In this document: piece by piece, positions 4,138 through 62,703 of the stretch | Numbering within the stretch: position 1 is the stretch's first letter | How the letters are laid out: every line of letters begins with the position of its first letter | Origin: Somniosus microcephalus | Taxonomy: Eukaryota | DNA length: 64,000 nucleotides | NCBI GenBank assembly: GCA_052327205.1 | Contig: CM126221.1 | Span: 24,738,001-24,802,000 of the forward strand | Direction of reading: 5' to 3' | The notes under the pieces: generated by a model | The model's database searches: none | The model's input: the letters and a program-made list of their open reading frames with translations, nothing else | Told to the model about the DNA's origin: nothing | Program-made: the position numbers and the translations under genes

Positions 4138-4558
4138 GAGATATTAAGAACAGGCCATTCGGCCCTTCGAGCCTGCTCCGCCATTCAATGAGAGCAGGAC
4201 TGATCATCTGCCTCAGTTCCATTCACCGGCCTTATCGCCATATCCCTTGATGCCCATACTGGTCAGAAATCTATCGACTTCTGTTTTGAATATACCCAAT
4301 GACTGAGCCTCCACAGCCCTCTGGGGTAAAGAATTCCAAAGATTCACCACCTTCTGTGTGAAGAAATTTCTTCTCATCTCAGTCCTGAATGGCCTACCCT
4401 TTATCCTGAGGCTGTGGCCCCTGGTTCTAGACTCCCCAGCCAAGGGAAACATTCTCCCAGCATCCACCCTATCAAGCCCTGTAATAATTTTGTATGCTTC
4501 AACGAGATCCCCTCTCATTCTTCTGAATTCAAGAGAATACAGGCCTAGTTTACTCAGT
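4138..4558 (-). mobile_element. CR1 LINE 3' fragment
   Basis: ORF 4213-4518: MRGDLVEAYKI...SRTRGHSLRIKG...VVNLWNSLP. Confidence 0.9.
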
Positions 4559-21775: not shown

Positions 21776-21776
21776 G

Positions 21777-36181: not shown

Positions 36182-37978
36182 CTACAGTAAATGACTGTAT
36201 ACAGTACTGTGGTTGACTGTACACTTATTCCAAGCCAGCTGGTCCATCAGGAATATCCATGTCAGCTGGTTCATCAGGATCATGCACTTCAACAGATTCT
36301 TCAGGCACTTCCACTGCTTCAACTCTTTTGGAAGCTTTCCTAAACATGTCCCGGATGTCTGCTTGCTTAGTGGACTCTTGCCTTTTTTGTAGAAAGGTGG
36401 AATGCACAATATGGAGGTGCATAACTTCTTGGGCAGAGTAGCAAGGATGCCTTTCAGCAAATTGGAGGATTAAAGCAAATCCTTCTGCAGCTTTAGCCCA
36501 AGAAATCTTCTTCTCTTCAGAAATCTCATCCTCTTCACTTCCATCTCACTTTCCTTTTCTTTCTTTGGTTTCAAAACAGTCTCAATTATTTCATCATCAC
36601 TTAGCATATGCACAACAGCAACTTCTCTATCTGCATCAACCCACTGCTCAATATCACTTTCACTGAGGTTACGTAGAGGGTTTGCTGGGCCTACATTTTT
36701 CACCATGCCAGCCATTTCCATTATTGTACTCTTGGGACGAACATTGAACCCATGAAATTCCTCCTCTGAAGAAGAACCTTCAGCAAACATTACAGAAGGC
36801 CACAATTTGCGCCAGGCTTGCCTCAAAGTGTGACCTTTCACCAAGTTCCAGGAACATGCAACATTAAAGATGGCATCTTTAAGATTGTATTCCTTCTGAA
36901 ATGCGTGAATATTGTCATCTTGGCTTATCAGTTTACGTAGGAAGCCTTTCTTGTAATGACACTTGAGATTTTGGATAACGCCCTGGTCTAAGGGTTGTAT
37001 GAGAGAAGTTATATTTGGTGGCAAATAAATGGTGAAAATATTTCCCGAAACCAACTCGGATTCATGCGGATGGGCTCTACAATTATCGAGCAATAAAATG
37101 CATTTGCTATCTTCAGGTTTCCCTATTTTATGGAAATGTTCCTTCACAGATGGAACAAAAATATGATGGAACCAATACGAAAATATTTCCTTATCCATCC
37201 AAGCATTTCTTTGAGCTTTGTACTTAACAGGTAAGTGCCTCATATTTTTAAATGCACGGGGATTTTTTACTTCCCAATAACAAGAAATTTAACCCGGTGT
37301 GATCCAGCAGCGTTCGCACATGTTAGCACAGTTACACGATCTTTATTTTTCTTGTAACCTGAAGCATTAGCCTCACTAGCCCCAGCAAACGTTGATTCTG
37401 GCAAAAACCTCCAAAATAAACCAGTTTCATCAGCATTGTATATCTGTACTATGAGACAGATCATGTTGGTGCACAATCTGATTAAAATAATCGCAGTATT
37501 CATCTGCGGCATCGTGATCAGCTGATTTCTTCTCCCCGGAAATATCGAGTCGTTGTATCCCGTGCTGTAACTTGAAGCACGTTAGCCATCCCTCGGAGAA
37601 AGCACACTTGTCAGTGAGCTCCATCTTTACATAGAAATCCTTCGCTTTCTCGATTAGCATGGGTCCGGAAAGTGGAACACCCTCTAAACGCTTAAGAGAA
37701 AACCACTCATAAAGCACGGTATCCAGCTCTTCAAGCTTAGGCTTACGAAGCGTACGCCGTTTCTCTACACTGTTAGATGTCTCCGAGCTTGAATAAAACT
37801 TGAGCAGCTTATCCTTCTGCGATTTGATGTCGTAGATTGTTGACGAACCGATTTTGAATTCATTCATAATGTTGATACGCGTCTCTCCCCGTTCTAGTCG
37901 TTGGCATATCTCGATTTTCTGTTTTAAAGTTAACACCACTCTCTTCCTTTTGCTTGGACCAACTTTTGGGAATTCCAT
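36182..37978 (-). pseudogene. Frameshifted Tigger/Jerky-like transposase
   Basis: [12 protein letters not shown] and CENP-B HTH domains, plus DDE_1 motifs [19 protein letters not shown] and QPLDQG, spread over 4 frames. Confidence 0.9.
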
Positions 37979-38016
37979 AATGCAACATGGGGGAGATAAT
38001 TCATGATAAAGATGGA

Positions 38017-38162
38017 GAGACACATAGAAAAATGGCGGATCGGAGGAGAGTACCGGCAGCGCGGGAGACACACAGTAAAATGGCGGATCGGAAGAGACTA
38101 CCGGCAGCGCGGGAGACACAGAAAAATGGCGGATCGGAAGAGACTACCGGCAGCGCGGGAGA
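38017..38162. repeat. Three ~47-bp tandem repeats upstream of the Tigger ORF
   Basis: GAGACAC..AAAATGGCGGATCGGA.GAGA.TACCGGCAGCGCGG, three copies. Confidence 0.9.
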
Positions 38163-41777: not shown

Positions 41778-43394
41778 GGCCTAGAAATTGGGTATAGCCC
41801 CGCTTGGGGCGCTAGAATTGGCGCAGCGCAAAGTTTATAGCCAGACGCAACTTATCGCCACCTGGCGCGATATTGGGTTGCATCGACCCTAAAGGTGATT
41901 GAGGCGCGAATTCAGGCATTACACGGGACTCCTAAGGCGCTAAACTTTCGGCGCAACCCAATATCGGAGCGGATGGGCGCAGCGCAGGTGCTCTCAATTA
42001 CCGATGACCACGAGACTTCCAGGCGCCGGCCAGCTCTTAAAGGGGTGGGTCAGTCAGCTCCAGCATCCACACTCTGCGCCTTGTAGGCCTCAGAATCGGC
42101 GCAGGCCCTTCTCTGGTGCTAAAAACTTGGACCAGATGGAGAAGGTGAGACAGAGAGCAGAGCGCTTCACCAACGAGGCTCTGGAGCAATTGGTGGCTGC
42201 AGTGGTGCGCCGGCGAGATGTTCTCTACCCAGACAATGGCAGGAGGCCGAATCATAAGGACTACCGACGAGCTTGGAGGGATGTATGCCAGAGAGTCAAC
42301 TCCAGCAGCATGGCGACCAGGAGCCCTGTCCAATGCAGAAAGAAATTCAACGACCTCACTCGGGTCGTGAGGGTGAGTGTTGTTTCTGCAAACTTCTGCA
42401 TCCCTTCATTTGCACCTGACTTTATGGCTACAGGGTGGGCTGTGCCCCATTGGCCATCTGCCACCAAGCACCCATGGCCCTTTCTGGGCTCACACATGCA
42501 CATTTGACTCAAGGCGTCATGTAAGGGCTCTTGCACCATGGGGGGCATGAGATGATCACTCAGGGCATCATGTAACATAACTTCCCCTCCTTTACCCTGC
42601 GGTCCAAGCTGGCGAGGATTCGCAAAGACCAGCTTCGCACCAGTGGAGGACCTCCACAAGTGGATCTCGAGGAGAGAGTCCACCAGATTCTTGGAGGACG
42701 TCTGAGTGGTCCTGTAACCACTGCAGCTGCCGACCCCATTGTCGACAGCGATGGTAAGGTTCTCACCTTTTACAAATGTCTCCTTCCACTTGTTCCCCCC
42801 GCCAGCATGCTTTCTCACTGTGGACCCATGTCATAGCCTTGCCGCAATCTGGCATCCCTTGCTGCCAAGCTGTCCTTTTGCTAAAGCCACTCTTCCATCT
42901 CCCTGCTTTCAGATGCTTCATCACCAGCTCGGGAGCCGGGCCCTCAAGCTGCCAGTGCCAGTGCCTCCGAAGGCTCAATGAGAAAGTACTGTCCAACAGA
43001 AGGTCAGCAACTCTCTCCAGCAACGATCAGAATGGCCAGCCCAAATGGCTGCAGCTTTTATACTAGTGCTGTCCCCTTTAAAGAGCGCCCCCCGAGTCCG
43101 AGAAGGGCCTGGGAACGCTCCATCCAACTGTCACTAATAGCGCCAAGCGGAAAGGTTGCGGGCGCCACCGAATATCCGGTCCGGGGCGCAAAAAAGGCAT
43201 TGCACACTGAAATGACGTCATGATCTGCCTGCGACCGCGGGCGCGCACGCAAAGTGTTAGCGCTGGCGCTAAAAGGATACTCAATATGGGAGGTGGCGCT
43301 ATATTCACTGCGCCCGCCCGAAAATTGGGTAACGCCCCAATTCTCGGACTCATTAGGCGCTAATCGCTGGCGCTACCAACCGAATTTCTAGGCC
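41778..43394 (+). mobile_element. Non-autonomous Harbinger derivative retaining a Myb/SANT gene remnant
   Basis: TIR GGCCTAGAAATT and TSD TAT (41775-41777, 43395-43397). Myb exon 1 at 42136-42372 with a GTGAGT donor. No transposase. Confidence 0.92.
42136..43030 (+). pseudogene. Myb/SANT (MADF-like) DNA-binding gene remnant
   Basis: MEKVRQRAERFTNEALEQLV...QCRKKFNDLTRVVR. The exon 2 acceptor reads CGG instead of CAG (42600-42602), and exon 3 is truncated. Confidence 0.8.
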
Positions 43395-44123
43395 TATGTT
43401 CCCCAACATCTCTGGGAGGTTATTTGTGTCTTCCTTTGTGAAGACAGAACCAAAGTATGTATTTAATTGGTCTGCCATTTCTTTGTTCCCCATGATCAAT
43501 TCCCCTGATTTTGACTGCAAGGGACCTACGCTTGACTTCACCAATCTTTTTCTCTTCACATATCTATAGAAGCTTTTACAGTCAGTGTTTATATTCCCTG
43601 CAAGCTTACTCTCATATTTTATTTTCCCCCTCTTAATTAATCCCTTTGTCGTCCTTTGCTGAATCCTAAACTGCTCCCAACCCTCAGTTTTGCTGCTTTT
43701 TCTGGCCAATTTATATGTCCTCTCCTTGGATCTTATGCTATCCCTAATTTCCCTTGTTAGCCACGGTTGAGTCATCTTTTTTGTTTTATTTTTATGCCAA
43801 ACAGGGATGAAGAAATTCTGTAGTTCATCCATGCGATCTTTAAATGTTTGCGATTGCCTATCCACCGTCAACCATTTAAGTAACATTCCCCATCCATCCT
43901 GGTCAACTTGCGCCTCATACCAGACTCTACCACCAGCCAAAAAAGTTTCTCTCTATCTACCCTAACAATTCCTTTCAAAATTCTAAAAACTTCAATCAAA
44001 TCACTCCTTAACCTTCTATATTCCTGGGGCTACAAGCCTAGTTTATGTAATCTCTCCATGTAGTTTAACCCTTGGAGCCTTAGTAACATTCTGGTGAATC
44101 TGCATTCGCCTTTTTGATTATTT

Positions 44124-45650
44124 CTGGTAGAAATAGTAGATGCATTGCTGGTCATCTTCCAAAATTCTATAGACTCTGGAATAGTTCCCATGGATTGGAG
44201 GGTAGCTAATGTAACCACACTATTTAAAAAAGGTGGTAGAGAGAAAATGGGGAATTATAGACCGGTAAGCCTGACATCGGTAGTGGGGAAAATGCTAGAG
44301 TCCATTATAAAAGATGTAATAGCAGAGCACTTGGAAAACAGTGACAGGATCGGACAAAGTCAACATGGATTTACAAAAGGTAAATCATGCTTGACTAATC
44401 TACTGGAATTTTTTGAGGATGTAACTGGTAGAATAGATAAGGGAGAACCAGTGGATGTGGTGTATTTGGACTTTCAGAAGGCTTTCGATAAGGTCCCGCA
44501 TAAGAGATTGGCGTGCAAAGTTAAAGCACATGGGATTGGGGGTAAGGTACTGACTTGGATAGAGAACTGGTTGGCAGACAGGAAACAAAGAGTTGGAATA
44601 AACGGGTCTTTTTCCAAGTGGCAGGCAGTGACTAGTGGGGTACCGCAGGGATCGGTGCTAGGACCCCAGCTATTCACAATATATATTAATGATCTAGACG
44701 AGGGAACTAGATGTAATATCTCCAAGTTTGCAGACGACACAAAGCTGGGTGGGCATGTGTGCTGTGAGGAGGATGCAGAGAAACTCCAGTATGATTTGGA
44801 CAGGTTGGGTGATTGGGCAGATGCATGGCAGATGCAGTATAATGTGGATAAAGGTGAGGTTATCCACTTTGGTGGCAAAAACAGGAAGGCAGATTATTAT
44901 CTGAACGGCAATAGATTGGGAAAAGGGGAACTGCAACGAGATCTGGGTGTCCTTGTGCACCAGTCGCTGAAGGTAAGCATGCAGGTGCAGCAGGCGGTTA
45001 AGAAAGCAAATGGTATGTTGGCCTTCATAGCGAGAGGATTTGAGTACAGGAGCAAGGATGTCTTGCTGCAGTTGTACAGGGCCTTGGTGAGACCACACCT
45101 TGAGTATTGTGTGCAGTTTTGGTCACCTTATCTGAGGAAGGATGTTCTTGCCATGGAGGGAGTGCAGCGAAGATTCACCAGGCTGATACCTGGGATGGCA
45201 GGAATGACGTATGAGGAGAGATTGGGTCGATTGGGCTTATACTCGCTGGAGTTTAGAAGAATGAGAGGGGATCTCATTGAAACTTATAAAATTCTAACAG
45301 GACTAGACAGACTAGATGCAGGAAGGATGTTCCCGATGGCAGGGGAGTCCAGAACCAGGGGTCACAGTCTAAGGATAAGGGGTAAGCCATTTAGGACTGA
45401 GATGAGGAATTTCTTCACCCAGAGAGTGGTGAACCTGTGGAATTCTCTACCACAGAAGGCAGTTAAGGCCAGCTTATTAAATATATTTAAGAAGGAGTTA
45501 GATATATTTCTTAAGGCTAAGGGGATCAAGGGATATGGGGAGAAAGTAGGGATAGGGTACTGAATTTAGATGATCAGCCATGATCTCATTAAATGGCGGA
45601 ACAGGCTCGAGGGGCCGAATGGCCTACTCCTGCTCCTATCTTCTATGTTT
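44124..45650 (+). mobile_element. Young 5'-truncated CR1 with an open 472-aa RT frame
   Basis: ORF 44145-45563 has a complete RT (NYRPVSLTS, YLDFQKAFDKV, PQGSVLGP, FADD). Near-identical in reverse to 38989-41640. Confidence 0.95.
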
Positions 45651-46325: not shown

Positions 46326-47148
46326 AACTTAGTGAATGTAAGATGGCTGAAGCAGGCTCCTGAATGTCTTTTACTTGCCTTCTGCCTGCCACGATTCCCA
46401 TGATAGAAAGTCATCAAAATATCAGAAAGAGGAGGCTGTTTTGGAGTTGACACGTTGATCATTATCTTGTTTGGCTCCTACCTCAACGACCTCCTCTGGT
46501 AATCGTGAATAGGAACCCAAAGGCCATACAGGGGAAAACCCGTTAATGATTTAGGTCTAGCTCTCTGAAGCCATTGGACAATGCCAAACCTCATGCACTG
46601 AACACATCAGAGACACATTGGACAGTTGAACATCTGTGTGAGGCATCTATGAAGCTGGGGGCTTACTAGAAACCATCCAAATGTGGGTCGATGGACATTG
46701 CCATTATCTTGTTTCCCAGAAAGGAGAATAAGTGTGGGAACTGTGGGCAACCCCGTCTAAAGTTGGCTGCAGGTTTTGAACACCAGAAATGTGGCTGTCT
46801 GCAATTAATCACCTTGGCCTAGAAATTCAGTTGGGCGCGCCAGCCGTTAGCGCCTTAGGAGGAGTAGATCTCGAGCGCTAGGCGCTTATCGCCCGGGCGC
46901 AGCGCGATCTGCGCCTCTCCCCAACTTCAGGACACATTTAGCGCCGGCGCAAAGTCTTAGCGCGCGCCCTGCTGCGCGCGCAGATCATGACGTCATTTAA
47001 TAGTGCAACGCCCTTTGTGCGCCCCAAACCGGAACTTCACTCGCACCGGCCCATTGTGCGCCGGGCGGCCCGAGCGACTGTGAAGTGGAACGGTACACAG
47101 GCCAGCCGGGCCGCGGGGAGCGCTAATTAAAGGGCACTTACCCAGCAG

Positions 47149-47154
47149 TATAAA
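47149..47154 (+). promoter_or_regulatory. Candidate TATA box of the Harbinger transposase
   Basis: TATAAA about 170 bp upstream of the ATG. A similar block occurs in reverse at the matching end of the 41778-43394 derivative. Confidence 0.5.
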
Positions 47155-47321
47155 GGCCAGCCATTTTGCAGCATTCACTCTTGTGCAAAGGTTTTTTGGA
47201 CAGAGACCAAGGAGGAGAGTTTACTGGTTTGGACCAACACTTGGACAGGCATTTTTGGCTCAGGCCAGAGCTTACCAATTATCTTTGCCTTCATTCAGAG
47301 CTCAGTGTTTGCCAGCATATA

Positions 47322-48467
47322 ATGGGGGCTGCATTGGGTGGCAACGCTGAATTTCAGCCTTATGCCAGAAGGGCTTACAGACGCCGTGAGAGAGTGGCAG
47401 CCCTGGCTAGACGCAGAGGGGGCAACAGGCGTCGCCAACTGAGGCCTTACCCACGCAGGGTATACCGCCAGCAGACCTCCTATCTGACCATGTCTGCTGC
47501 GATGTGTGTTAGGAGGCTGCGATTCCGAAGGGAAGTGGTTGCAGACATCTGCCGGCTGCTTCAGAGAGATCTGCAGCCACAGCTGATGCGCAGGACGTCT
47601 CTGTCGGTGGCAGTGAAGGTGACGGTGGCTCTCAACTTCTATGCCTCCGGCTCCTTCCAATCCGCTACTAGGGACATCGCTAACATCTCCCAGTTCGCCG
47701 TGCATTGCTGCATCCGCCAGGTGACCGAAGCCCTTTTCAGAAGGAGATATCAATTCATCTCCTTCCCCATGACCCTGGACAAGCAGCAGCAGCGTGCAGT
47801 GGGGTTTGCAAGAATAGCGGGCTTCCCCATGGTGCAGGGCGCCATTGACTGCACGCATGTGGCTTTGCGGGCACCTCTTGAGCATGCCGAGGAGTACCGC
47901 AACCGGAAGGGCTACCATTCCCTCAATGTACAGCTGGTGTGTGACCACAGGCAGCGCATCCTAGCTGTCAATGCCCGCTTTCCAGGCAGCAGCCACGATG
48001 CCTTTATCCTGCGACAGACAACTGTGGCTGACATGTTCCAGGCACAGCCTCCCCCAAGAGGATGGCTTATCGGGGACAAAGGCTATCCTTTGTGTACCTG
48101 GCTCATGACCCCGCTCCGCGCGCCCACGACCCCTGCTGAAGAGGCATACAACGAGAGCCATCAAGCGACGAGGAACCTCATAGAACAAACAATCGGCGTG
48201 CTCAAGCAACGGTTCCGCTGTCTCGATCGCTCCGGGGGAGCCCTCCAGTATTCGCAGGATCGAGTCTCCCAATTCGTCGTCGTTTGCTGCATGCTGCACA
48301 ACCTGGCTATCCGCAGGACTCAGGCACTGCCACCTCACGTTGGACCACCACCTCAGGAGGAGGAGCAGGAGGAGCATGAGGACAACGAGGACGAGGAGTA
48401 CCAGCCCAGGAGGGACGCACAAGGTCCAAGGGCCGCCCGTCGGCGGCTTATTGAACGTCACTTCTAG
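47322..48467 (+). CDS. Harbinger DDE transposase (HARBI1-like family), 381 aa, intact
   Basis: Motifs ALNFYASGSFQ, GAIDCTHV, NRKGYHSLNVQ, PGSSHDA, IGDKGY and RNLIEQTIGVLKQRFRCL. First ATG at 47322. Confidence 0.95.
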   Translation: MGAALGGNAEFQPYARRAYRRRERVAALARRRGGNRRRQLRPYPRRVYRQQTSYLTMSAAMCVRRLRFRREVVADICRLLQRDLQPQLMRRTSLSVAVKVTVALNFYASGSFQSATRDIANISQFAVHCCIRQVTEALFRRRYQFISFPMTLDKQQQRAVGFARIAGFPMVQGAIDCTHVALRAPLEHAEEYRNRKGYHSLNVQLVCDHRQRILAVNARFPGSSHDAFILRQTTVADMFQAQPPPRGWLIGDKGYPLCTWLMTPLRAPTTPAEEAYNESHQATRNLIEQTIGVLKQRFRCLDRSGGALQYSQDRVSQFVVVCCMLHNLAIRRTQALPPHVGPPPQEEEQEEHEDNEDEEYQPRRDAQGPRAARRRLIERHF

Positions 48468-48580
48468 GCCCCCTGTCAGGGAATGGCTTGTGCCAATGAC
48501 AGAACATGATTGCAGCCGCTCCGCAAGCCCTCAGCCGGTTAAGGCAACAAACACTTCAAAGATCAAACATGGACAATGTG

Positions 48581-48600
48581 AATAAATAAAATGCTTTATT
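48581..48600. terminator. Convergent polyadenylation signals between the two Harbinger genes
   Basis: AATAAA on + (48581-48586) and on - (TTTATT at 48595-48600). Confidence 0.65.
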
Positions 48601-48843
48601 GTACAAACTCTGGGCCCTTCCCACATGAAAACCAAAAAAAGACGAAACCCCCAAAAAACACTCAAACACATTACTCGCTCCCACAACCTGGAGACGATTA
48701 ACAAAATAGGGCAACTAAAATGGCCGTCATTCTCGGCCTTCGTCCAAAACAAACATCACATCATCGGCCTTCAAAAAACAAACATCCAATTCTCGGCCTC
48801 AAGAAACAAACACAAATGGCCACACATTCGACTATTTGGCCCG

Positions 48844-50859
48844 CTAGGGTGATGCCTTGGCCATCTTTGGGTGGCCCCTGCCCGCCCTGCTGCTCCGCCT
48901 CAAAGTAAGGCCATTGGCTGCTGCAAGGCTGGGGGCAGGCTCCTGAGTGGCACATGTTGTGACGGCAGATGCCCTTGGGGGTCGGCCTAGTCGAGGTCTG
49001 GCCGTCGAGCGGGCGGCTGTTGATTGCTGCAGCTGTGGCTGGCCAGCATCAGTCGCTGCAGCAGCTCCTGGCAGCTCCACTGGGGGAGTGGCAGTGGCGG
49101 CTGGAGGAATGGCGGCTAGCTGGCGGATGGCAGGCGCTCGCTGGTCGCCTGAGACACTGGCACTCGCCTGGGCCAGCACTGCAGCATGCGCACCAATCTG
49201 CCGAGGGACAGACCGCTGTGCTGCTGCAGCGCGCCGGGTGCCCTGGCGATGCCTGGCTGACACAGCGAGTGTGGCAGCAGTGAGTGCCGGTGTTGACCTG
49301 TTCACTGACCGCATCAGAGCAGCCAGTGACTGGACGGCACCACTGATCACCTGGCCAGTCGCTGACAGATCTGCCCGGTATTCCGCCCGACTGGTGGCCT
49401 CTGAGGGCCCGAACTCGGCCACACTCCGAGAGAGGGAATCGATGGACTCAGGCAACCATGCCACTGCCGCCATGAGCTCCGTGTGCCGGCACTCCGAGTC
49501 CGCGGACAAGTCTTCGAGGCGTTCCATCTCCTCGGCGAAGAGCATCTCCTGACTGGAGGCCGGACTCTCCCTCTGGGGAGAAGGCCGCCGAGCTGGCCGA
49601 CCCTTCCTGCGTTGCTGGAGGCCGCTGGGCCCAGCAATTGGACTCCCCTCTGATGCATCCCCACTCTGGGGAGAAGGCCGCCGAGCTTCCACCCCCCTCC
49701 CGCCTTTCTGCAGCACGCAGGTCCCAGGAGCTCCCCTCCCCTTCGACACTTCCGCCACGCTGCCCTCCAGGGAAGACGTGTCCCCTACATTGGCCTGGGT
49801 GGCCACGGCTGAGGGTTCCCCTGATGGGCTGCCTTCCTCTTGCTCCTCCTCCTGCTCCTCCTCGGAGGGTCTGTCACTGGCAAGTTGAGGGACCTCCTCT
49901 TGACCATCTGAAAGCAGGAAGGCACAAGAGTAGCTTTAGAGTGAGGAGAGGGCGTCAGTGCGGGATGCATGAGTGGTGGCATTCAGCGCATTGGTCGGAC
50001 AGTGGCAAAGGATGTAGATCTGATGCGCAAGTGGGACGAGAGAGGTGCAAAAGGTGATGTCCTTACCATTGCTGCCCAGAACAGGGTCGGCATCTCCACA
50101 TGCAACGGGCCCAATCACCCGGCCACCCATGAGGCGCTCCACGCGATGTTGCAGGTCGGTGAGTGGCTGGATATGGGGTCGGCCTCCCCCGGTCGCAGTC
50201 CGGCTCTTGCGATTATTCGCCAGCTTGGCCTGCAAGAGAAAGGACGGCCTCTAAGTACAGTGTGCCGCCGTGATCTTGTGTGCACTGCCTCCCATGGTGG
50301 AATAGCCTGGCCAGTGTGTCGCCATGATCTGGTGTGCACTGCCTCCCATGGTGGAATAGCCTGGCCAGTGTGTCGCCATGACCTGGTGTGCAATGCCTCC
50401 CATGGTGGAATAGCCTGGCCAGTGTGTCGCCATGATCTGGTGTGCAATGCCTCCCATGGTGGAATAGCTTGGCCAGTGTGTTAAGTGCAGAATGTGCCAT
50501 TGATGCTCATGCCTGTCCCATAGCTGCTGGATGAAGGCTGGCCATTAGAGCTTTCAGGTCCCTTTGCCCATAATGTGAGGTGCACATGCAAGGATGAGGA
50601 GGTCATTGGAAAGGGTACTCACCCTGACAATGCGTGTGAGGTCATTTAACTTTTTGCGGCATTGGGCACCGGTCCTGGGGACGTCACTGTTGGCTGACAG
50701 CTTGCTGGCGACATGCCTCCAGGCTCTCCTGTAGACGCGGACCGTCGCCTTCTTGCCATTGTCCGGGTACAAAACATGGCGCCTCTTCTCCACAGCAGCA
50801 AGCAGCACACTCAGATCACGCTCTGAGAAGCGCTGCGCACGTTCACGGGCCTTCTCCAT
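48844..50859 (-). CDS. Harbinger Myb/SANT DNA-binding protein, 3 exons, about 487 aa
   Basis: Exons 50859-50623, 50229-50067 and 49907-48844 have GT-AG junctions and splice in frame (phases 0 and 1). Sequence includes MEKARERAQRFSERDL...QCRKKLNDLTR and TATGGG. Confidence 0.88.
50258..50480. repeat. 54-bp tandem repeat, about 4 copies, in Myb intron 1
   Basis: Unit CAGTGTGTCGCCATGATCTGGTGTGCACTGCCTCCCATGGTGGAATAGCCTGGC. Confidence 0.95.
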
Positions 50860-51289
50860 GTCTTCAGGCGCTATTTGGGTCCAGCAGCAGTGTTCAGGCC
50901 TAGCTGGAGGGCTCCACTATCCAGGGCGTGGCAGCAGACACAGTCGACCCTTCCCCCTTAAGAGCTGGCCGGCGCCAGGGTGTCTGCTGTCAATCACGAG
51001 ATGGCTGCACCTGCGCTGCGCCCGGCCTCGGCGCTATCGATTACCACCTCCGGCTTAGCGCCCAAAGAGAGGCGTCCAGCAGCAGTTTTAGCGCTCGCCC
51101 GAACTAGTAGGGCGAAGCTAATGAATATCGGAAAAGTGGCGTCAATGAATTTCTAGGCCCTTGATTCTAATCAAATTGGGCTTGATGCATGATGGTTATA
51201 GATGTCCAGTGGCTAACTAAGCAAGAGAGCACCTATTCATGAACACCAACAAGTACTTTTAAGAAACCTCTAAACTTGTTTGTTAATTG

Positions 51290-52400
51290 TCTTAACTAGT
51301 AATCCAGAGGCCTAGATTAATGATCCAGAGACATGATGTAAGATCTTAATGATCTCTGAGTTCTTGGGCAAGACACCAATAGGCAGCAGCCAGTATGTTT
51401 GAGCAATAGATCAAGATTTATTAAGCTTACAGTGTAATTTACTTAACAACAGGTGATAGTTTAACGAGTAGCTCGCAGCCCTTGGTCTCGGGAATCTCTC
51501 GGACACAGGTGACGTTGTCTTCAGTCTGTTCCTTTGTTCTCGCAGTAGGTCTGTGTGAAGATGTTTTTTGAGTATCAAGGTTTTAACCCATTTCTTATCA
51601 AAAGTTTGTTTGGCCAGTGTCCATATATGGTCTTTAACAAAATCACCTTTAATTGGTTCTAATGGTCAAAATACCATTGTCATTCAGACTAAGGTTGCAT
51701 TTTGGCCCCTCCTGGCTCAGTCATTTTCCAATAACTCTACCCTATTCATTGTTATCTTGTTTATACGTTCTTCACTTCATTGGAATTTACCTCATCTCTC
51801 TTATTTCTAGCTTCAAGCAGTACAAGGCCTCGTAAGCTGTATAGACTGCGTGACTGTCCATTATCAGAACTAGTCTTGATCAGTCCCGGCTGTCTTTGCA
51901 GTTACATTTTGAGCAAGCCTTAGCAATTTATGCACAAGTCATTACAGGTCATACAGAATATAGATATTTGGTTAATGTGAAGTTCACTATTCTACACTCA
52001 CACTTATATCTATACATGTTATTCCTAAAAACATCAAAGTCTTTTGTACACTGAGTTCACATCCCACCAGCTGGGGAATTTAAATTCAATTGATTAAATA
52101 AATCTGGAATAAAAAGCTAGTGTCAGTAATGGTGACCATGCAACTACCGGATTGTTGTAAAAACCCATTTGGTTCCTTTAGGGAAGGAAATCTGCCGTCC
52201 TTACCTGATCTGGCCTATATGTGACTCCAGACCCACAGCAATGTGGTTGACTCTTAACAGCCCTCTGAAATGGCCCAGCGAGCCACTCAGCTGTATTCAA
52301 GAGGCAGCTCACTGCCACCTTCTCGAGGGCAATTAGGGATGGGCAGTAAATGCTGGCCTTGCTGGCGACCTCCACATCCCGTGAAAGAATTAAAAAAAAA
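51290..52400 (+). mobile_element. SINE-like retroposon with a CR1-group tail, split by a solo LTR
   Basis: GATCCAGAGACATGA|GTTCACATCCC rejoins across the LTR. The tail matches the 16981 LINE 3' end and ends in poly(A). Confidence 0.6.
51337..52050 (-). mobile_element. Solo LTR (714 bp), possibly retroviral
   Basis: TGTA...TACA termini with flanks ATGA/CTGA (4-bp TSD, one mismatch). AATAAA on the minus strand at 51417-51422. Confidence 0.62.
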
Positions 52401-53364: not shown

Positions 53365-56300
53365 TGATATACCTATCAATTCAGTTCATGAAAAGCGACG
53401 AGTTAAGTTAGTAACTATAGGTTTTTATTGGCTAAATAACAGAGCCCACCCTCGTGGGTGATCGGATCCAACAAGGAGGAATACCAGCCAGTCGGCCACC
53501 TTTATACCTGGGCAAGCAGGCGGAGCCAGGGGCGGAGTCAGCTGTGGTCAGCCCAGGTATAACAGCGTGGCAAGAGGTGGCCTTGTGTAGTGATACAACA
53601 GTGTGAACAGTGATAACCATAGTGTAACGATATAAACAGTGATAACCATAGTGTAACGATAGTGAACGATAAAAGTGGTTTACTACATTCACCCCTTGTT
53701 TAAATTTGAGTCCGGCGGGGTGAAGTGTACTACCAGTTCGGGTATGTCAGTCTGTCCGGAGGCCTCGTAAGCCTTTCTGATCGGCGCAGCAGCGGCGGCG
53801 GTGGTGCAGTATCCGATGTTAATGCTGGTGTCTGCGTGGTCGGCGAAGGCTTGTGGGGTTCCGGCATGCCGTCTACCTGGGCTGGATTTGGGGGGGTGGT
53901 GAGGGGTAATGGTGGTGTCTCAGGGGTGCCCGAGGGTGCGGGGTCTCGTAAGGAGACTGTGTCCTCCCGCCCGTCTGGGTATGCCACATAGGCGTACTGG
54001 GGGTTGGCGTGCAGGAGGTCCACCCTATCGACCAGGGGGTCCATTTTATGGGCCCTCACGTGCTTTCGCAGTAAGACGGGCCCCGGAGAAATCAGCCATG
54101 TTGGTAGCGAGGTTCCCGTAGTCGACTTCCTGGGGAAAACAAACATTCGTTCATGGGGGGTGGCGTTAATGGCAGTGCAAAGCAGTGACCGGATGGAATG
54201 CAGCGCTGCCGGGAGGACTTCCTGCCAGCGAGAGGTTGGGAGGCCCTTAGACTTTAAGGCTAAGAGAACGGCCTTCCAGACAGTCGCGTTCTCTCTTTCC
54301 ACCTGGCCGTTCCCTCGGGGGTTGTAGCTGGTGGTCCTGCTTGCAGCAATACCTCTCGCTAGTAGGAACTGGCGAAGTTCCTCGCTCATGAAGGATGAGC
54401 CCCGGTCGCTATGTATATAGTTCGGGAACCCGAACAAGGCGAAGAGGTCGTTCAGGCATTTGATGACCGTGGTACTGGTCATGTCTGGGCAGGGGAAGGC
54501 AAAGGGGAAACGGGAGTACTCATCAATAATGTTGAGGAAGTACACATTACGGTCAGAGGACGGGAGGGGCCCCTTAAAATCGATGCTCAAGCGCTCGAAG
54601 GGGCGGGTGGCCTTGATCAGGCTTGCTCTGTCCGGCCTAAAGAAATGCGGTTTGCATTCGGCACAGGTTTGGCAGTTCCTGGTCATGGTCCTCACCTCCT
54701 CGATGGAGTATGGCAGGTTGCGGGCCTTAATGAAGTGGTAAAGTCTGGTGACACCGGGGTGGCAGAGGTCGTTGTGGAGGGTCTGCAGTCTATCAATTTG
54801 CGCGTTGGCGCATGTACTTCGTGATAGAGCATCTGGGGGTTTGTTCAGTTTACCAGGCCGGTACAAGATATCATAATCGTAGGTGGAGAGCTCGATTCTC
54901 CACCTCAAGATCTTGTCGTTCTTGATTTTGCCCCTCAGCTTGTTATTAAACATAAAAGCGACCGAGCGCTGGTCGGTGAGGAGGGTAAATCGTTTGCCTG
55001 CCAGGTAATGCCTCCAGCGTTGTACTGCCTCCACGATCACCTGGGCCTCCTTCTCGACCGAAGAGTGTCGGATCTCAGGGCCCTGGAGGGTCCTTGAGAA
55101 GAAGGCCACAGGTCTCCCCGCCTGGTTAAGGGTTGCAGCTAGGGCGAAGTCGGATGCATCGCTCTCCACCTGGAAAGGGATAGACTCATCCACCGCGTGC
55201 ATTGTGGCCTTAGCAATGTCTCCCTTTATGAGGGAGAAGGCTGCGCATGCTTCTGCCGTCAGGGGGAAGGAGGTGGACTTCATGAGGGGTCTGGCTTTGT
55301 CCGCATAATTGGGCACCCATTGGGCATAGTAGGCGAAGAGCCCCAGGGTTCTCTTCAGCGCCTTTGGACAGTGGGGGAGGGGAAGCTCCATGAGGGGGCG
55401 CATTCTTTCGGGGTCGGGGCCGATGACTCCGTTCTCTATTACGCAGCCAAGGATGGCAAGGCGCGAGGTGTTAAACACACATTTCTCCTTATTGTAGGTG
55501 AGGTTCAGCCGTTGGGCCGTACGGAGGAATCTCTCCAGATTAACATCATGGTCCTGCCGGTCGCGGTCGCAGATGGTGACGTTATCTAGATAAGGGAACG
55601 TGGCATGCAGCCCGTTCTGGTCAACCATCCGGTCCATCTCCCTTTGGAAGACCGAAACCCCGTTGGTGACGCCGAAGGGAACCCTACGGAAGTGGTAGAG
55701 GCGGCCATTCGCCTCGAAGGCGGTATACTGGCGGTCCTCAGGGCGGATAGGGAGTTGGTGATAGGCCGACTTAAGGTCGATGGTAGAGAATACCCGGTAC
55801 TGTGCAATCTGATTGACCATATCAGATATGCGGGGAAGTGGGTATGCGTCCAGCTGGGTGTACCGGTTTATGGTTTGGCTGTAGTCGATGACCAGGCGGT
55901 GTTTATCGCTGGTCTTAACGACTACGACCTGGGCACGCCAGGGGCTGTTGCTTCCCTCGATGATGCCCTCCTTCAGGAGTCGCTGCACCTCTGAGCTAAT
56001 AAAAGCTCTGTCCCCGGCGCTGTACCGCCTGCTCTTGGTAGCGACGGGTTTACAGTCACGGGTGAGGTTAGCGAACAGGGAGGGGGGCGGGACCTTGAGG
56101 GTGGATAGCCCGCAGGTGGTATGCGGTGGGCGGTTTAAAAGCTGCTGGTTGTAGACTGTGAGTGGGGGGAGGGGTCCACCGTATGCCAAAGTGACACTTT
56201 GAAGGTGGGATTGGAAATCCAGCCCTAGTAGGACGGCAGCGCAGAGCTGGGGCAGGACGAGAAGTTTAAAATTTTTATACTCCGTGCCCCTAACCGACAG

Positions 56301-58052
56301 GGTCACAACACAGTAGCCGCTGATGTCTGTAGAATGGGACCTCGACGCCATCGAGATCCGGTTGCACGTTGGCCGGACAGTGAGGGAGTAGTGGCTCACC
56401 GTGTCTGGATGGATGAAACTCTCCATGCTCCCGCTGTCGAACAGGCAGGTCGTGGCGTGGCCGTTTACTTTGATGTCCATCATGGACTTGGACAGGTGAT
56501 GCGGGCGAGCTTGGTCAAGTGTGACGGAGGCTAGTGTATGGCTGAGCGAGCTGCTGTAGTCTGCGGGTGAGGCGGTGGTCAGGTCTGGAGACAAGGTGGC
56601 GGTCGAGTGTGGTGAACAAAATGGCGGCGCCCACGACGTTGAATAAAATGGCGGAGAAGATGGCCGCCCCCACAACTCACATGAGGCACTGCCGGCGTCG
56701 GTGGCCTTGATCAAAGATGGCCACCTCCACGACTCACACGAGGGTATACTGGCATCTGTGGCCTTGATGAAAGATGGCCGCCCCCACAACTCGCATGAGG
56801 CACTGCTGGCGTCTGTGGCTTTCCCCCTGCAGGCCTTCGCGAAGTGGCCTTTCTTGTGGCAGTCGGAGCAGGTCGCGTTTCTTGCAGGGCAGCGCGCCCT
56901 CGGGTGTTTCGCCTGGCCACAGAAGAAGCAGCCGGCGGCCCGATCGCGTGGCTCCGATGTCGCAGCCGGTACCGGGGGTGGCGGTCCCGATCGGTTCCGG
57001 GACACCGACGCTGTGGTAGGTCCCAGAGGCGGCGGTGCGAGGGGTATTGCGGCCGGGGTCGGGCCCAAGTCCCAGGGTCGCGCAGCACAGTACCTGAAGT
57101 ACGCCTCGAGGTCCTGATGGGCCACTTCCAAGGAGCGAGCGAGGATAGCAGCTGTTTTCAGGTCGAGGTCCTTTGATTCCAGCAGTCTTTGCCATGAGTA
57201 GTCTGACCGAAGGCCTTTCACGAAGGCATCTCGGATGTTTCCATCTGTATGTTCTGCAGCTGTTACGGCTTTAAAGTCACAGTCCCTGCCGAGTATTTGC
57301 AGCGCCCATAAGAAATCATCAACCGACTCTCCTGGCTGTTGCGAGCGGGATCTTAGGAGATGCCTGGCATACATTGAGTTTACAGGGCTCCGAAACTGTT
57401 CTTTTAGCAGGTTGAGGGCGTCCTCGTATGTGGCAATGTCCCGGATGAGTGCAAATACTTTAAGGCTCACCTGAGCGGTCAGAACTCTTAGTTTGGATTC
57501 CGGAGGCACGCCGGATTCTCCCAGGTAGGCTTCGAAGCAGCTCAGCCAGTGTTCGAAGTCGAGGGCTGAATTCGCAGCCTGTGGGTTTAGATCCAGGTAT
57601 GGCGGCCGGAGGGCTCGTAGCCAGGCCGGCTGCTGGGGCTGTTGTGGATGGCCGTTTGGCTGGGGCTGTACGTCTGACTGGTCGTTTGGCTGCTCCGTTG
57701 TAGACATTTCAAAATTTAGCCAATAAAATTGATATACCTATCAATTCAGTTCATGAAAAGCGACGAGTTAAGTTAGTAACTATAGGTTTTTATTGGCTAA
57801 ATAACAGAGCCCACCCTCGTGGGTGATCGGATCCAACAAGGAGGAATACCAGCCAGTCGACCACCTTTATACCTGGGCAAGCAGGCGGAGCCATGGGCGG
57901 AGTCAGCTGTGGTCAGCCCAGGTACAACAGCGTGGCAAGAGGTGACCTTGTGTAGTGATACAACAGTGTAAACAGTGATAACCATAGTGTAACGATATAA
58001 ACAGTGATAACCATAGTGTAACGATAGTGAACGATAAAAGTGGTTTACCACA
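53365..58052 (-). mobile_element. Full-length Gypsy LTR retrotransposon with intact ORF and no tRNA PBS
   Basis: 323-bp LTRs at 53365-53687 and 57730-58052 with 6 differences. TSD GTGTG (53360-53364, 58053-58057). PPT AAACAAGGGGTGAA next to the 3' LTR. Confidence 0.98.
53730..57707 (-). CDS. Gag-Pol polyprotein, 1325 aa, uninterrupted
   Basis: Two Zn knuckles, protease LFDSGS, RT (IDLKSAYHQ, PFG, YLDN), RNase H (SDAS, TDQ), and integrase HHCC plus DDE (SIDF, SDRG, QVER). Confidence 0.96.
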   Translation of the reverse strand: MSTTEQPNDQSDVQPQPNGHPQQPQQPAWLRALRPPYLDLNPQAANSALDFEHWLSCFEAYLGESGVPPESKLRVLTAQVSLKVFALIRDIATYEDALNLLKEQFRSPVNSMYARHLLRSRSQQPGESVDDFLWALQILGRDCDFKAVTAAEHTDGNIRDAFVKGLRSDYSWQRLLESKDLDLKTAAILARSLEVAHQDLEAYFRYCAARPWDLGPTPAAIPLAPPPLGPTTASVSRNRSGPPPPVPAATSEPRDRAAGCFFCGQAKHPRARCPARNATCSDCHKKGHFAKACRGKATDASSASCELWGRPSFIKATDASIPSCESWRWPSLIKATDAGSASCELWGRPSSPPFYSTSWAPPFCSPHSTATLSPDLTTASPADYSSSLSHTLASVTLDQARPHHLSKSMMDIKVNGHATTCLFDSGSMESFIHPDTVSHYSLTVRPTCNRISMASRSHSTDISGYCVVTLSVRGTEYKNFKLLVLPQLCAAVLLGLDFQSHLQSVTLAYGGPLPPLTVYNQQLLNRPPHTTCGLSTLKVPPPSLFANLTRDCKPVATKSRRYSAGDRAFISSEVQRLLKEGIIEGSNSPWRAQVVVVKTSDKHRLVIDYSQTINRYTQLDAYPLPRISDMVNQIAQYRVFSTIDLKSAYHQLPIRPEDRQYTAFEANGRLYHFRRVPFGVTNGVSVFQREMDRMVDQNGLHATFPYLDNVTICDRDRQDHDVNLERFLRTAQRLNLTYNKEKCVFNTSRLAILGCVIENGVIGPDPERMRPLMELPLPHCPKALKRTLGLFAYYAQWVPNYADKARPLMKSTSFPLTAEACAAFSLIKGDIAKATMHAVDESIPFQVESDASDFALAATLNQAGRPVAFFSRTLQGPEIRHSSVEKEAQVIVEAVQRWRHYLAGKRFTLLTDQRSVAFMFNNKLRGKIKNDKILRWRIELSTYDYDILYRPGKLNKPPDALSRSTCANAQIDRLQTLHNDLCHPGVTRLYHFIKARNLPYSIEEVRTMTRNCQTCAECKPHFFRPDRASLIKATRPFERLSIDFKGPLPSSDRNVYFLNIIDEYSRFPFAFPCPDMTSTTVIKCLNDLFALFGFPNYIHSDRGSSFMSEELRQFLLARGIAASRTTSYNPRGNGQVERENATVWKAVLLALKSKGLPTSRWQEVLPAALHSIRSLLCTAINATPHERMFVFPRKSTTGTSLPTWLISPGPVLLRKHVRAHKMDPLVDRVDLLHANPQYAYVAYPDGREDTVSLRDPAPSGTPETPPLPLTTPPNPAQVDGMPEPHKPSPTTQTPALTSDTAPPPPLLRRSERLTRPPDRLTYPNW

Positions 58053-58326: not shown

Positions 58327-61300
58327 TGTAGTGTCCGCGTACCAATAACACACGGACTGCAGGAGAACGGTAATAACAGGTGTTTACTGAACAGAGGGTA
58401 TGCTGGAACTGAAAGTACAGAAGCCTGCTACGGCTTTATATACAGGTGTGGTCACTGCCGGTACTACAGTATAAAAGCAGTTCTCTCTTAAAGGTACATA
58501 CACAACAATTCCCCCCCTTTTAGATAAACAGTACATAACATTCATTTAACAACTAAATAATAACTAATTACAATTACAATTTTCTCTGTACTATATACAT
58601 CAGCTGAAAGTAATCATTTATAAATTCAGTCTTTGAGGAGGCTTCCTGATCCTGTCTGGATAGCGCCTTTCTCGAGTATCCTGTTCTTGCGGCGGAGTCG
58701 ATTCTGGCTCATTGTCATTGGTTGGTTCGTCAGCTTCCAATACCACTGATTCTGAGGTAGACGCAATCTGTACTTCGGGTTCATCACCAGATGCGCATGC
58801 TCGTGGTATGGGTTTGACTTGTTCCTGTGACTCTAGAATCTGGTCAGCATGGCGTCTCACGATGCTCTCTCCAACGTCCACTGTGTACATTAGTGGTCCC
58901 TGCTGTGTGCATATCGTTCCTGGCTGCCATTTTTCTGTTCGGTAGTCGCGGGCCAAAACTGGTTGCCCTATCTTGAAGCTCCTGGTTGGCTTCTCATTGA
59001 TGTGCTGGAATTGCTTATCCTCAACATCTCGTCTTATGTTTGGTTTGAGCAAATCCAGGCGACATCTTAACCTTCAGTTAAAGAACATCATGGCTGGAGC
59101 TTGGTTGGTGACTGCATGTGTCGCATTCCGGTAAGCAAACAAGAAATTATCCATCTTGTGTTGCAGTGGTATGTTGTCGTTATACATCGCCTTTATTGCT
59201 TTTGTAACGGTCTGAACAAACCTCTCAGCCAATCCATTTGTGGCTGGATGATATGGGGCAGATGTGTAATGCTTTACCCCATTATTCCTCAAAAACCTCC
59301 GGAAATCCTCGGACACAAACTGTGGTCCATTGTCGGAGCAAATCTGTTCTGGCAAGCCATTCCTGGCGAAGATGGTCCGTAGGACTGCAATAGTTTTCTC
59401 CGTGGTGGTGGAGGACATTTTGATGACCTCTGGCCATTTCGAATGTGCATCCACGGCGATTAAAAACATTGAGTCCATAAATGGACCAGCAAAATCAATG
59501 TGTACCCGTTGCCATGGAGATGAGGGCCACTCCCATGGGTGTAGCGGGGCCTGTGGTGGAGCGTTTTGGACTTTCTGGCATCCTGTGCATCTCTTGGTCA
59601 TTTCCTCGATTTCTTTATCGATTCCCGGCCACCACACAAACGCCCTGGCTAGGCTCTTCATTTTTACCCCTCCCAGATGACCCTCATGAAGCTCATTGAG
59701 CACTCTATCTCTCAACTTGGGTGGAATTACCACTCGGGATCCACACATCAAGGTCCCCCGGCACACTGACAGCTGTTCTCTCCTTGGCGAGAATGCTGGC
59801 AACAGTGAGTCGCCATGTGCTGGCCATCCCTTCACCGTCAAATCATAGACCCGAGAGAGTGTCAGGTCATTTCGGGTTTCCTTCTCTATACTTGAGTTTG
59901 TAACAGGTAGACATTCGACTATGGTCGAATGGAATATCTCAACAGGGTCCACTGCAGGTGCTTCCTCCCCCGTAGGCAGCGGCAGGCGCGACAGCCCATC
60001 AGCGTTTCCATGCTGTTTCGTACCCTTATACTCTATGTCGTATTGATGTGCCCCTAGAAAAAGTGACCATCTTTGCAGCCGTTGCGCCGTCATCACTGGA
60101 ACACCCTTCTTTGGGTTAAAAATGTAGACAAGAGGCTGGTGATCAGTCAGTAAGGTGAATTTCTGCCCGTGCAGATAGTGATTGAACTTCTTCACCCCCC
60201 ACACCAGGCTGAGGGCCTCCCTGTCAATCTGGGCGTAGTTACGCTCGGCTGAGGTTAACGAGCGCGACGCAAAAGCTGTTGGCCTCTCTGAACCGTCAAG
60301 GAATTTGTGCGACAGCACTGCTCCAATGCCGTAGGGAGACGCATCACATGCCAACCGAATCGGTAGTGTTGGATTGTAGTGGGCCAATACTTCTTTTGAA
60401 GTGATTAGGCATTTACATTTCTGAAAGGCACGCTTACAGTCATCACTCCATTTCCATGCTACTCCAGTTTGCAGCAGGGCATTCAGTGGGTGCAGAATTG
60501 TAGACAAATTTGGCAAGAACTTATGGTAGTAGTTCACCAACCCGAGGAACGACCTCAGTTGCGACACATTTTCCAGTGCTGGAGCCTTGACTACTGCCTC
60601 AATCTTGTCTGGGGACTTATGTAACCCCTCTTCATCAATCATGTGGCCACAATACGAGATTTGTTTCCTGAAAAACTCGCATTTGGGGCGGTTGGCTCGT
60701 AGCCCATATTCTTGTAATCTAGTGAGCACCTGCTCCAGGTTGGCAAGGTGTTCACTGTCATTTTCGCCCGTAACCAGGATGTCGTCCAAATAACACTGGG
60801 TCCCTGGGATCCCTCGCAGGACTTGTTCCATCGCCCTCTGCCAAATAGCCGGAGCTGATGCTACCCCGAATACCTGTCGGTTGTACTGGTAAAGACCTTT
60901 GTGAGTGTTTATCGTGAGGTATTTTCTAGATGCTTCATCTACCTCCATTTGTAGATACGCTTGGGCCAGATCAATTTTCGTAAAGCGCTTCCCTCCAGAT
61001 AGTGAGGCGAAAATATCTTCTATCCACGGAAGTGGATTTTGTACTGTGTGCAGGACTGGGTTCACAGTTACCTTAAAGTCCCCACAGATGTGAACCTTCT
61101 TCGGCTCCCCAGGCGTGCTGCTCAATGATTTCTTCATTACAGGAACGATGGGTGTGGCCCACTCGCTCCAGTCCACCTTGGACAACACACCCGAACGCTC
61201 CAGACTTTCCAGCTCTGTTTTGACGGCTGGGCGGATCGCATACGGTACCGGTCTGGCCTTAAAAAATTTTGGGTTTGCGTTATCTACATTTTTTATCGTT

Positions 61301-62703
61301 GCCGTTATGCCTTTTAGAGTCCCAAGTCCTTGCTGGAACACCTCTTTCGCGTCAGTTAGAATTTTTGACAGTCGTCCAGGTGTGATGTCGTCATCCTTTT
61401 TGTCAGCCATAGTTAGCGCCTGAATGGAATGCCAATCCAATTGTATTTTTCGGATCCATTCACGTCCCAATAATGGTGGTCCTCCATCTTGTAGTATATA
61501 TAGATACAGTTTATTTGTTTCCTTGCCGTTGTATTTAACGGGCACCCTTATTTTTCCTCTGGGGTAGACTTTTTGCCCCGTATATGTCTTCAAGACAATG
61601 GACGTGTCCTTCAAGGGTATGTGTGAGAATAGCCGCTCGTAGTCTCGTCGATTCATGACTGTTAGGGCTGATCCTGTGTCCAATTCCATCTTTACTTGGG
61701 ACCCTGCTATCATGAGGGTGACCCAAATGGTTCGGTGATCCTCCTTTGCGATCACGCTGTGTAACTTTAGACAACTTAGTCTCCTGCTCCCGGATTCATT
61801 ATCACTCTTCTGAACTACTGTCCGTCATCTTTTGTACTTTCTTGTACTTTTCCTTAGTAGTTCTTCTAGTGTTGGTTTTCTTTCCCGACCTGCAGACTCG
61901 TGCTATGTGTCCCACTTTTCCACATTGCCTGCATACTTTGTCCTTAAACCAGCAATCCTTCTGGTCATGGGTTGTTCTGCCGCAGCGATAGCACTTTTCT
62001 GCTCCATATGCCATTTCATTGGTGCTATATTCTTGCGGTTTCTGTTGTATTTCCGCAGCTCCCCGTGCTGCTGCTTTGTAGGATACTGCCACGCTGAAAG
62101 CCTTTTCTAGCGTAAGGTCCTTTTCTGAAAGTAGTCATTTCTGGGTTCCTTCACTCTGGAACCCGCAGACAAACTTATCCCTTAAGGTATCTGCCAGTCC
62201 TGCTCCGAACTGGCAGTGTTTCGATAACTTGCGTAGTTCCGTAAGATAGTCAGCATTACTCTCATCTTTGTGCTGGTTTCTTTTATGGAACTTGAATCTT
62301 TCTGCTATCAGCAGCGGTGTAGGGTTTAGATGTTCCTGTAAGATATTGACAATCTCTTCAAAGCTTTTCTCCATTGGTTTAGCTGGGGTAATTAAATTCC
62401 GCAATAGGCCGTACGTTCTCGCGCCCATCAAATTCAATAATACCGACGCCTTCTTTTCATCGGCCACCTCATTTGCCTTGTAGTACACTTCAATTCTTTC
62501 CACATACGTGGTCCAGTCTTCTATTTCGTTGTCGAAAGCAGTAATGCTGCCACTCTTCGGCATCTTGGGTGTTTTAAAATGGCGCCTCCCGCGCTTTTCC
62601 TTCTTCCCCAATGGATTAAAATGGCGCCTCCCGTGCTTTTCCTCCTTCCCCCTGCTGCCAATGCTGCTCCTAGCATTTTAAATAGTAATGGCGGCGCCCC
62701 GCG
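58327..62703 (-). mobile_element. Gypsy (Mag-like) LTR retrotransposon lacking its 5' LTR
   Basis: 3' LTR 58327-58507 (TG..CA) with an adjacent PPT. The 5' end breaks into a LINE tail at about 62705. Confidence 0.92.
58618..62563 (-). pseudogene. Disrupted gag-pol
   Basis: Gag (EDWTTYVER, two Zn knuckles), protease LDTGS, RT YLDD, RNase H CDAS and integrase IDFAGP/SDNG/LAER, in 4 ORF pieces. Confidence 0.93.

Follow-up and report, generated by a model that had tools for sequence, protein, structure and literature searches.

The stretch of DNA analysed here, called the window below, is a 64,000-nucleotide piece of contig CM126221.1 of Somniosus microcephalus, and at 46816–51159 it contains a two-gene transposon of the PIF/Harbinger type. 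The element is bounded by perfect terminal inverted repeats (TIRs) of 14 bp, the left at 46816–46829 (forward strand) and the right at 51146–51159 (minus strand), which begin with GGCC; the triplet CTT flanks it on both sides (46813–46815 and 51160–51162, forward strand) as the target-site duplication (TSD). The transposase gene is a single forward-strand exon that runs from an ATG at 47322 to a stop codon ending at 48467, is preceded by a TATA box (TATAAA, 47149–47154, forward strand; kept in 12 of 14 sister elements) and encodes 381 amino acids with a match to Pfam DDE_Tnp_4 (PF13359; E 5e-38) and with the DDE triad D176/D252/E288 in place. The second gene lies on the minus strand, and its three exons (50859–50623, 50229–50067 and 49907–48844) join through GT-AG sites into a Myb/SANT frame of 487 amino acids. 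The two genes converge on poly(A) signals at 48581–48600: AATAAA for the forward strand at 48581, and TTTATT, the minus-strand signal, at 48595–48600, kept in most sisters. The TIRs, the CTT duplication, the transposase frame, the spliced Myb/SANT frame and the poly(A) signals, and the identity of the whole as a two-gene Harbinger transposon, had been proposed in an earlier note on this DNA and are confirmed. The same note called the element intact, recent and possibly still active, and here our conclusions differ. We consider it quite probable that this is a full-length, Nuwa-like copy from a family of at least 3,191 members whose burst has likely ended, and that the copy has since lost 61 subterminal bases, a loss likely to weaken its own mobility. 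The element is likely an ageing one, of a kind already known, and not active.

Long frames also result from many other junction pairs in the neighbourhood of those proposed, so the open spliced frame of the Myb gene alone proves little. Exon 1 (50623–50859, 79 amino acids) encodes a Myb/SANT-like DNA-binding domain (Myb_DNA-bind_5, PF13873; E 1.7e-13) and by itself matched 82 homologues in a HMMER search; against the longer proteins of a word-indexed database it gave no match. These homologues align to the spliced frame over both junctions, the best of them (P0127) over residues 2–478 with E 1e-53, and read-through into intron 1 (50230–50622, 393 nt) stops after 22 codons. In the 14 sister elements of the same genome, the donor and acceptor of intron 1 are conserved in 14/14 and those of intron 2 (49908–50066, 159 nt) in 13/14; intron 2 measures 158–159 nt in all 14, and the lengths of exon 1 and of exon 2 (50067–50229, 163 nt) are each kept in 13. 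In comparison with these sisters, the ratio of non-synonymous to synonymous substitution (dN/dS) comes to 0.50 in exon 1 and to 0.48 in exon 2 (1.39 when read out of frame). Exon 3 (48844–49907, including the stop codon) is of low complexity, contains a 93-bp duplication (49571–49742) and is barely constrained, with a dN/dS of 0.98 in one test and of 0.81 against 1.05–1.15 out of frame in another. Constraint appeared only in this wider comparison with sister elements; between the two main subfamilies of the family itself selection was not significant (transposase 0.51, Myb 1.07). The predicted three-exon model is therefore supported by homologues and by splice sites conserved among sisters. 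The introns showed features of their own. Intron 1 carries a tandem repeat (a 54-bp unit, 4.1 times, at 50258–50481) whose unit number differs between copies. Both introns (49908–50066 and 50230–50622; loci L181–L194) are more conserved than fourfold-degenerate sites, with shared non-CpG changes over 15 elements at 96/432 as against 105/279 positions (p 1e-5). The P-element repressor is a truncated product of a retained intron, and an analogous Myb isoform was considered on the ground that intron 2 reads in frame up to a stop in most sisters; intron 2 had a dN/dS of 0.82 in frame and of 1.4 and 2.5 in its two remaining frames, intron 1 gave no in-frame signal, and the isoform is not supported as coding.

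The claim that the element is intact fails at its right end. A genome search returned 34 copies at 98–100% identity, and the 33 others match only up to base 4,323–4,331 of the window copy. This copy is 4,344 bp long, as against 4,387–4,405 bp in 29 other best copies, because 61 bp are gone 19–28 bp inside the right end. The missing segment was flanked by two AAGTGGC repeats close to the inner edge of the right TIR, and the junction now stands as a 7-bp microhomology at 51134–51140 (forward strand). Only one of 119 aligned copies, that of the window, carries the deletion. The genome contains its junction a single time, and hence the clipped form has not given rise to another copy. The lost bases contain the two conserved TTTAGCG motifs nearest to the right TIR; 28 of the 29 other top copies keep both within their last 70 nt, and the window copy has none there. 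Motifs of this kind are concentrated in the ends: GCGCTAA occurs seven times in 660 end bases of the full copy L002 and not once in its 3,745 interior bases, and the subterminal motif recurs at the ends of sister elements and of MITEs (transposable elements of the miniature inverted-repeat type). By its likeness to the 9-bp subterminal site of the Myb-type protein of zebrafish Harbinger3_DR (PMC9710019), TTAGCG(C) is likely the binding site of the Myb protein, and the repeated motifs in the left subterminal region of the window copy (46830–47130) are putative sites of the same sort.

The two-protein mechanism described for Harbinger elements (PMC9710019, PMC2836001) suggests how these parts would work together. 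As judged from Harbinger3_DR and Ping/Pong, the TTAGCG(C) motifs inside both ends would be bound by the product of the spliced Myb/SANT gene, and this protein would help the DDE transposase to enter the nucleus and to reach the 14-bp TIRs. Excision of the element by the transposase would follow, and then its reinsertion with a stagger of 3 nt. In rice Ping/Pong and mPing, mobility is affected by sequences inside the TIRs (PMC2836001, PMC9921582). Loss of the 61 subterminal bases likely weakens the mobility of the window copy. Its transposase also departs from that of its subfamily by G117R, H143Y and D355N. R117 is nearly private, being found in one of 83 genomic copies and not among the six commonest residues at this site in 120 homologues, most of which have G, A or S. 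In total the copy carries 34 substitutions, of which 14 are CpG transitions, and the high CpG density read by the earlier note is accordingly weak, with an observed/expected ratio of 0.64 in the element, 0.55 in the window, and 0.46 and 0.66 in the 5 kb to its left and right. The family may lend itself to the gene-transfer use raised in the earlier note; as a donor for a gene-transfer or mobility assay, this copy is a poor choice.

The copy belongs to a family of at least 3,191 copies, the number of genome matches to its exact left-end 24-mer; a right-end pattern gave 2,972. A positional sample comprised 99 left ends among the first 100 that were listed for contig C1 (the 100th lay within a stretch already fetched), and it held 89 full-length copies, four of 744–804 bp and six without a right end within the fetched stretch. 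Together with the 30 top matches, and after ten that were not full length had been dropped, it forms the aligned set of 119. By strict criteria the transposase is open in 56 and the Myb frame in 46 of the 89 full-length copies; both are open in 29 of the 99, which extrapolates to about 935 genome-wide (Wilson interval 680–1,240). There are three or four subfamilies, 4–7% apart. Recombination between them is not claimed, as painting with diagnostic sites gave an intermediate group (D) and no clean crossover block.

Several measures of divergence speak of a burst that is likely over. The closest independent insertions differ by 0.91–0.94%, and the two closer pairs share flanks and are duplicates. 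Five whole-genome DNA queries (the window copy, L003, L108, L185 and L183) found no full-length twin, the best non-self match being at 98–99%, and each of the 30 top copies carries 6–19 CpG transitions. Measured at non-CpG sites, terminal branches have a median of 0.53–0.55%, with 0.4% for the window copy and 0.16–0.2% for the lowest. At the pedigree-based mutation rate of the epaulette shark, 7e-10 per generation with an interval of 1.4–14.1e-10 (PMC10587355), the median corresponds to roughly 4–39 million generations, a rough figure given that the rate comes from another shark species, and an overestimate wherever ancestors are unsampled. The description of the element as recent is thus valid for its divergence alone. 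Open frames need no recent activity, because a neutral simulation with substitutions only leaves 0.68–0.72 of transposase and 0.64–0.68 of Myb frames open, near the observed fractions, which include indels. The slow mutation rates of sharks probably explain the open frames: after insertion each copy would decay about neutrally, and a host that presumably mutates slowly would keep many frames open long after mobility had slowed or stopped. These twin tests rule out a large current burst, not rare jumps.

The target of the family is well sampled. A perfect 3-bp duplication flanks 93 of 119 distinct insertions, and it is not due to chance, because shuffled flank pairs match at 3 bp in only 3.5% of cases (first 82 insertions); duplications of 4 or 5 bp were found in none of 82. 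The duplicated triplet takes 28 forms among the 93, and 50 consist of A and T alone. The commonest flanking bases are AAACAC before and GT(G/C)TTT after it, position −5 is A in 77 and position +5 is T in 80 of the 93, and C stands immediately before the triplet in 58 and G immediately after it in 62. The insertion target is a 15-bp palindrome, AAACAC-NNN-GT(G/C)TTT, whose nearly free and mostly A/T centre is duplicated. It falls outside every duplication class of PMC4482050: TWA, proper to PIF/Harbinger in the narrow sense of Han et al. (2015), makes up 7 of the 93 triplets, the CWG of NuwaI 2, the TNA of NuwaII 14 and the ANT of Pangu 17. Neither this family nor a target with a free centre was described in the literature searched, with most subscription journals and Repbase outside its scope. 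At four pairs of loci (L009/L014, L196/L199, L191/L200 and L189/L194) distinct elements, some from separate families, sit in the same immediate flanks; identity within L009/L014 is 92% for the flanks and 98.6% for the elements, a pattern suggesting that favoured sites in host repeats were hit repeatedly and independently. Full-length elements also lie only 50–220 bp apart at C1:41065013-41073693 (L080) and C1:7864678-7873898 (L063, L186), a sign of local hot spots.

The ends of the element are shared far beyond its family. The exact 14-bp TIR has 78,560 matches in the genome, as against 0 for a control, and the first 100 listed matches, counted by eye, form 31 facing pairs: 17 of 4.1–5.1 kb, ten of about 700 bp, three of about 1,380 bp and one of 6.3 kb. 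Both genes are present in 14/14 full-size non-family elements that were fetched, with transposases 75–90% identical, and a perfect 3-bp duplication flanks 17 of 20 fetched TIR-sharing elements; the matches beyond the family are sister families and MITEs. By extrapolation the clan would comprise about 39,000 TIR-bounded elements, some 13,000 of them full size. It is conceivable, though we would not expect it, that its native gene pairs are still working and moving in the germ line, on a 15-bp palindromic target that is read through its flanks with a free triplet, outside the TWA, CWG, TNA and ANT classes. If this were true, the clan would be a natural vertebrate two-component system with gene pairs that need no reconstruction.

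Transcripts were sought in two raw RNA runs (X23 and X24), which carry one organism label (B), are of unspecified tissue and come perhaps from another species. At 90% likeness, the element is covered over its full length, with both ends and the introns, by 10,342 and 14,921 reads, and the depth of the Myb introns equals that of the exons. In 90 and 183 reads the sequence continues outwards across the left TIR into a mixture of flanks, and none of 189 and none of 369 reads show the bases private to the window copy at 47250 and 47534. Among the nine joints listed for 49850–51500 at a 1% share (1,522 and 3,007 reads in X23 and X24), the joints of the Myb introns, 50623/50229 and 50067/49907, are absent. 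The RNA of the family in these runs is unspliced and looks mostly derived by read-through from host loci. The presence of the insertion in organisms A and B was checked in the DNA runs X1 and X2, where the flank bin 51194–51249 had zero depth and the private bases 51042 and 51133 were unseen, a coverage hole that proves nothing.

An alternative, improbable in our judgement, is that the family, or the clan that shares its TIR, goes on moving at a low germ-line rate, driven by some of the roughly 900 two-frame copies, in which case the window copy may supply protein or be moved in trans. The approximately 935 copies with both frames open, the lowest terminal branches, the many MITEs with the exact TIR and a strand bias of transposase RNA would all agree with such a rate. 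They are set against the lack of twins among the 119 aligned copies and in the five genome-wide queries, of spliced Myb reads in the two RNA runs, and of any copy among the top 30 free of CpG decay. For the window copy itself, the suggestion of present activity finds no twin copies and no junction reads in its favour, and the copy is clipped in cis.

A burst that has likely ended remains the preferred reading, and several considerations weigh against it. The aligned copies searched for twins are 119 of at least 3,191, with five queries added, a sample in which recent jumps, if rare and made by random copies, would escape notice. Both RNA runs come perhaps from another species and the germ line may differ; in the 3′ half of the transposase gene (47929–48109) reads of the two strands stand at 631 against 76 and 641 against 102, a sixfold to eightfold bias in keeping with sense transcripts of the family or of related elements. 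A role for the subterminal motif, and effects of the deletion and of G117R, are putative. The age depends on a rate that belongs to another shark and has a tenfold interval, and the age of insertion is overstated by terminal branches.

Recent horizontal transfer into the lineage, for which the earlier note had proposed the element as a candidate, would explain the low divergence between copies, and such transfers of Harbingers have been reported in fish (PMC9179366) and sea kraits (PMC8437027). Transposons are under-sampled in annotated protein sets, and only 7,993 candidate proteins were scored for nearest relatives. Those nearest are all from sharks and rays, at 57–68% identity, against 46–51% for matches from bony vertebrates. 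In a quick midpoint-rooted tree of 55 rows, which used 40 of the 120 homologues, the window element and its 14 sisters form one clade (support 100) within a set of 25 shark and ray rows (support 95). The graded series of sister families in the genome fits long diversification in place, and four runs from three organism labels contain at least half of the sampled words, so that the DNA is common to the three. Because the nearest proteins and the tree place the element among shark and ray sequences, the lineage is probably vertical, and we regard a recent transfer as very improbable. One survey reports no Harbinger in the elephant shark and calls for checks of other cartilaginous fish (PMC9179366); repeat tables already list Harbingers in the whale shark and the grey reef shark (PMC8455134, PMC12498223). 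Domestication of the locus as a HARBI1/NAIF1-like gene pair, suggested by the automatic label 'putative nuclease HARBI1' in the homologue database, would mean a single copy without TIRs and is practically refuted by perfect TIRs, a TSD, thousands of dispersed copies with different flanks and private non-synonymous changes in this copy.

The window contains further repeats. Two of them are a 1,617-bp non-autonomous Harbinger at 41778–43394 (TIR GGCCTAGAAATT, TAT duplication), with Myb exons 1–2 and without transposase or exon 3, and a MITE-like element of 763 bp at 31419–32181 with GGCCCAGAAATTC ends and an AAT duplication. A long terminal repeat (LTR) retrotransposon on the minus strand at about 53425–58050 has one open frame of 1,335 amino acids (protease, reverse transcriptase, RNase H and integrase) and a near-identical LTR pair, and two more LTR-retrotransposon pol regions lie at 59077–61824 and 5376–9013, the second spread over several frames. 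An open 481-amino-acid reverse-transcriptase fragment of a long interspersed nuclear element (44118–45563) stands 1.2 kb to the left of the Harbinger element, and a Tigger/pogo-like transposase in two frames (CENP-B_N, HTH_Tnp_Tc5, DDE_1) occupies 36473–38143. At 21773–27003 there is a 25-bp satellite of 212 copies with a CpG observed/expected ratio near 1, which is the source of long spurious open frames.

The case illustrates that perfect ends and frames still open are no proof of activity where the genome mutates slowly, and it adds a detailed description of a Harbinger family of elasmobranch type. With hundreds of native copies that keep both frames, and with a target logo drawn from many insertions, the family makes it testable which of the two proteins reads the Harbinger target, and whether a vertebrate Harbinger that has not been reconstructed works in cells.

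Among known systems, the element belongs to PIF/Harbinger broadly defined (PHIS, groups with two open reading frames, ORFs), as it has the transposase triad, the Myb/SANT gene, TIRs and a 3-bp TSD. As to its place within Nuwa, motif blocks compared by eye match NuwaII-4_XTro and NuwaI-2_DRer about equally, and the tree was built without named Nuwa sequences. Like the window family, NuwaII (PHIS superfamily, PMC4482050) has TIRs that start with GG, two ORFs, and C before and G after the triplet; in C-TNA-G the centre is TNA, whereas here the flanking C and G occur in about two thirds of insertions and TNA is rare. One of the closest known counterparts is zebrafish Harbinger3_DR, a reconstructed element also named NuwaI-2_DRer, which likewise has DDE_Tnp_4 and Myb_DNA-bind_5 genes within about 4.2–4.4 kb (PMC3016246, PMC9710019, PMC2836001, PMC4482050), short TIRs, a 3-bp duplication, a 15-bp palindromic target and a repeated subterminal motif. 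The AAACAC and GT(G/C)TTT of the window family, its commonest flanking bases, match the flanks of the Harbinger3_DR target consensus, AAACACCWGGTCTTT (PMC3016246). Unlike Harbinger3_DR, the window family has a nearly free centre with hardly any CWG, TIRs that begin with GGCC and not with the GGG usual in NuwaI, a Myb frame of 487 as against 221 listed amino acids, and at least 3,191 copies, hundreds of them native with both frames open, as against 293 listed. Mass expansion in a vertebrate is shared with Harbinger-Snek of sea kraits (PMC8437027) and with the Harbinger expansion of Pleurodeles (PMC5741667): intact copies with both genes are numerous, derivatives with a single ORF and MITEs occur, and near-identical copies are few, as expected of a slowed expansion. 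Harbinger-Snek differs in being horizontally acquired and in having 269 intact copies in L. colubrina, compared with about 935 and no sign of transfer here. Rice Ping/Pong and mPing (PMC2836001, PMC9921582) resemble the family in an extended target preference, in MITE derivatives and, presumably, in the two-protein mechanism; they differ as plant elements of demonstrated activity with a TAA duplication.

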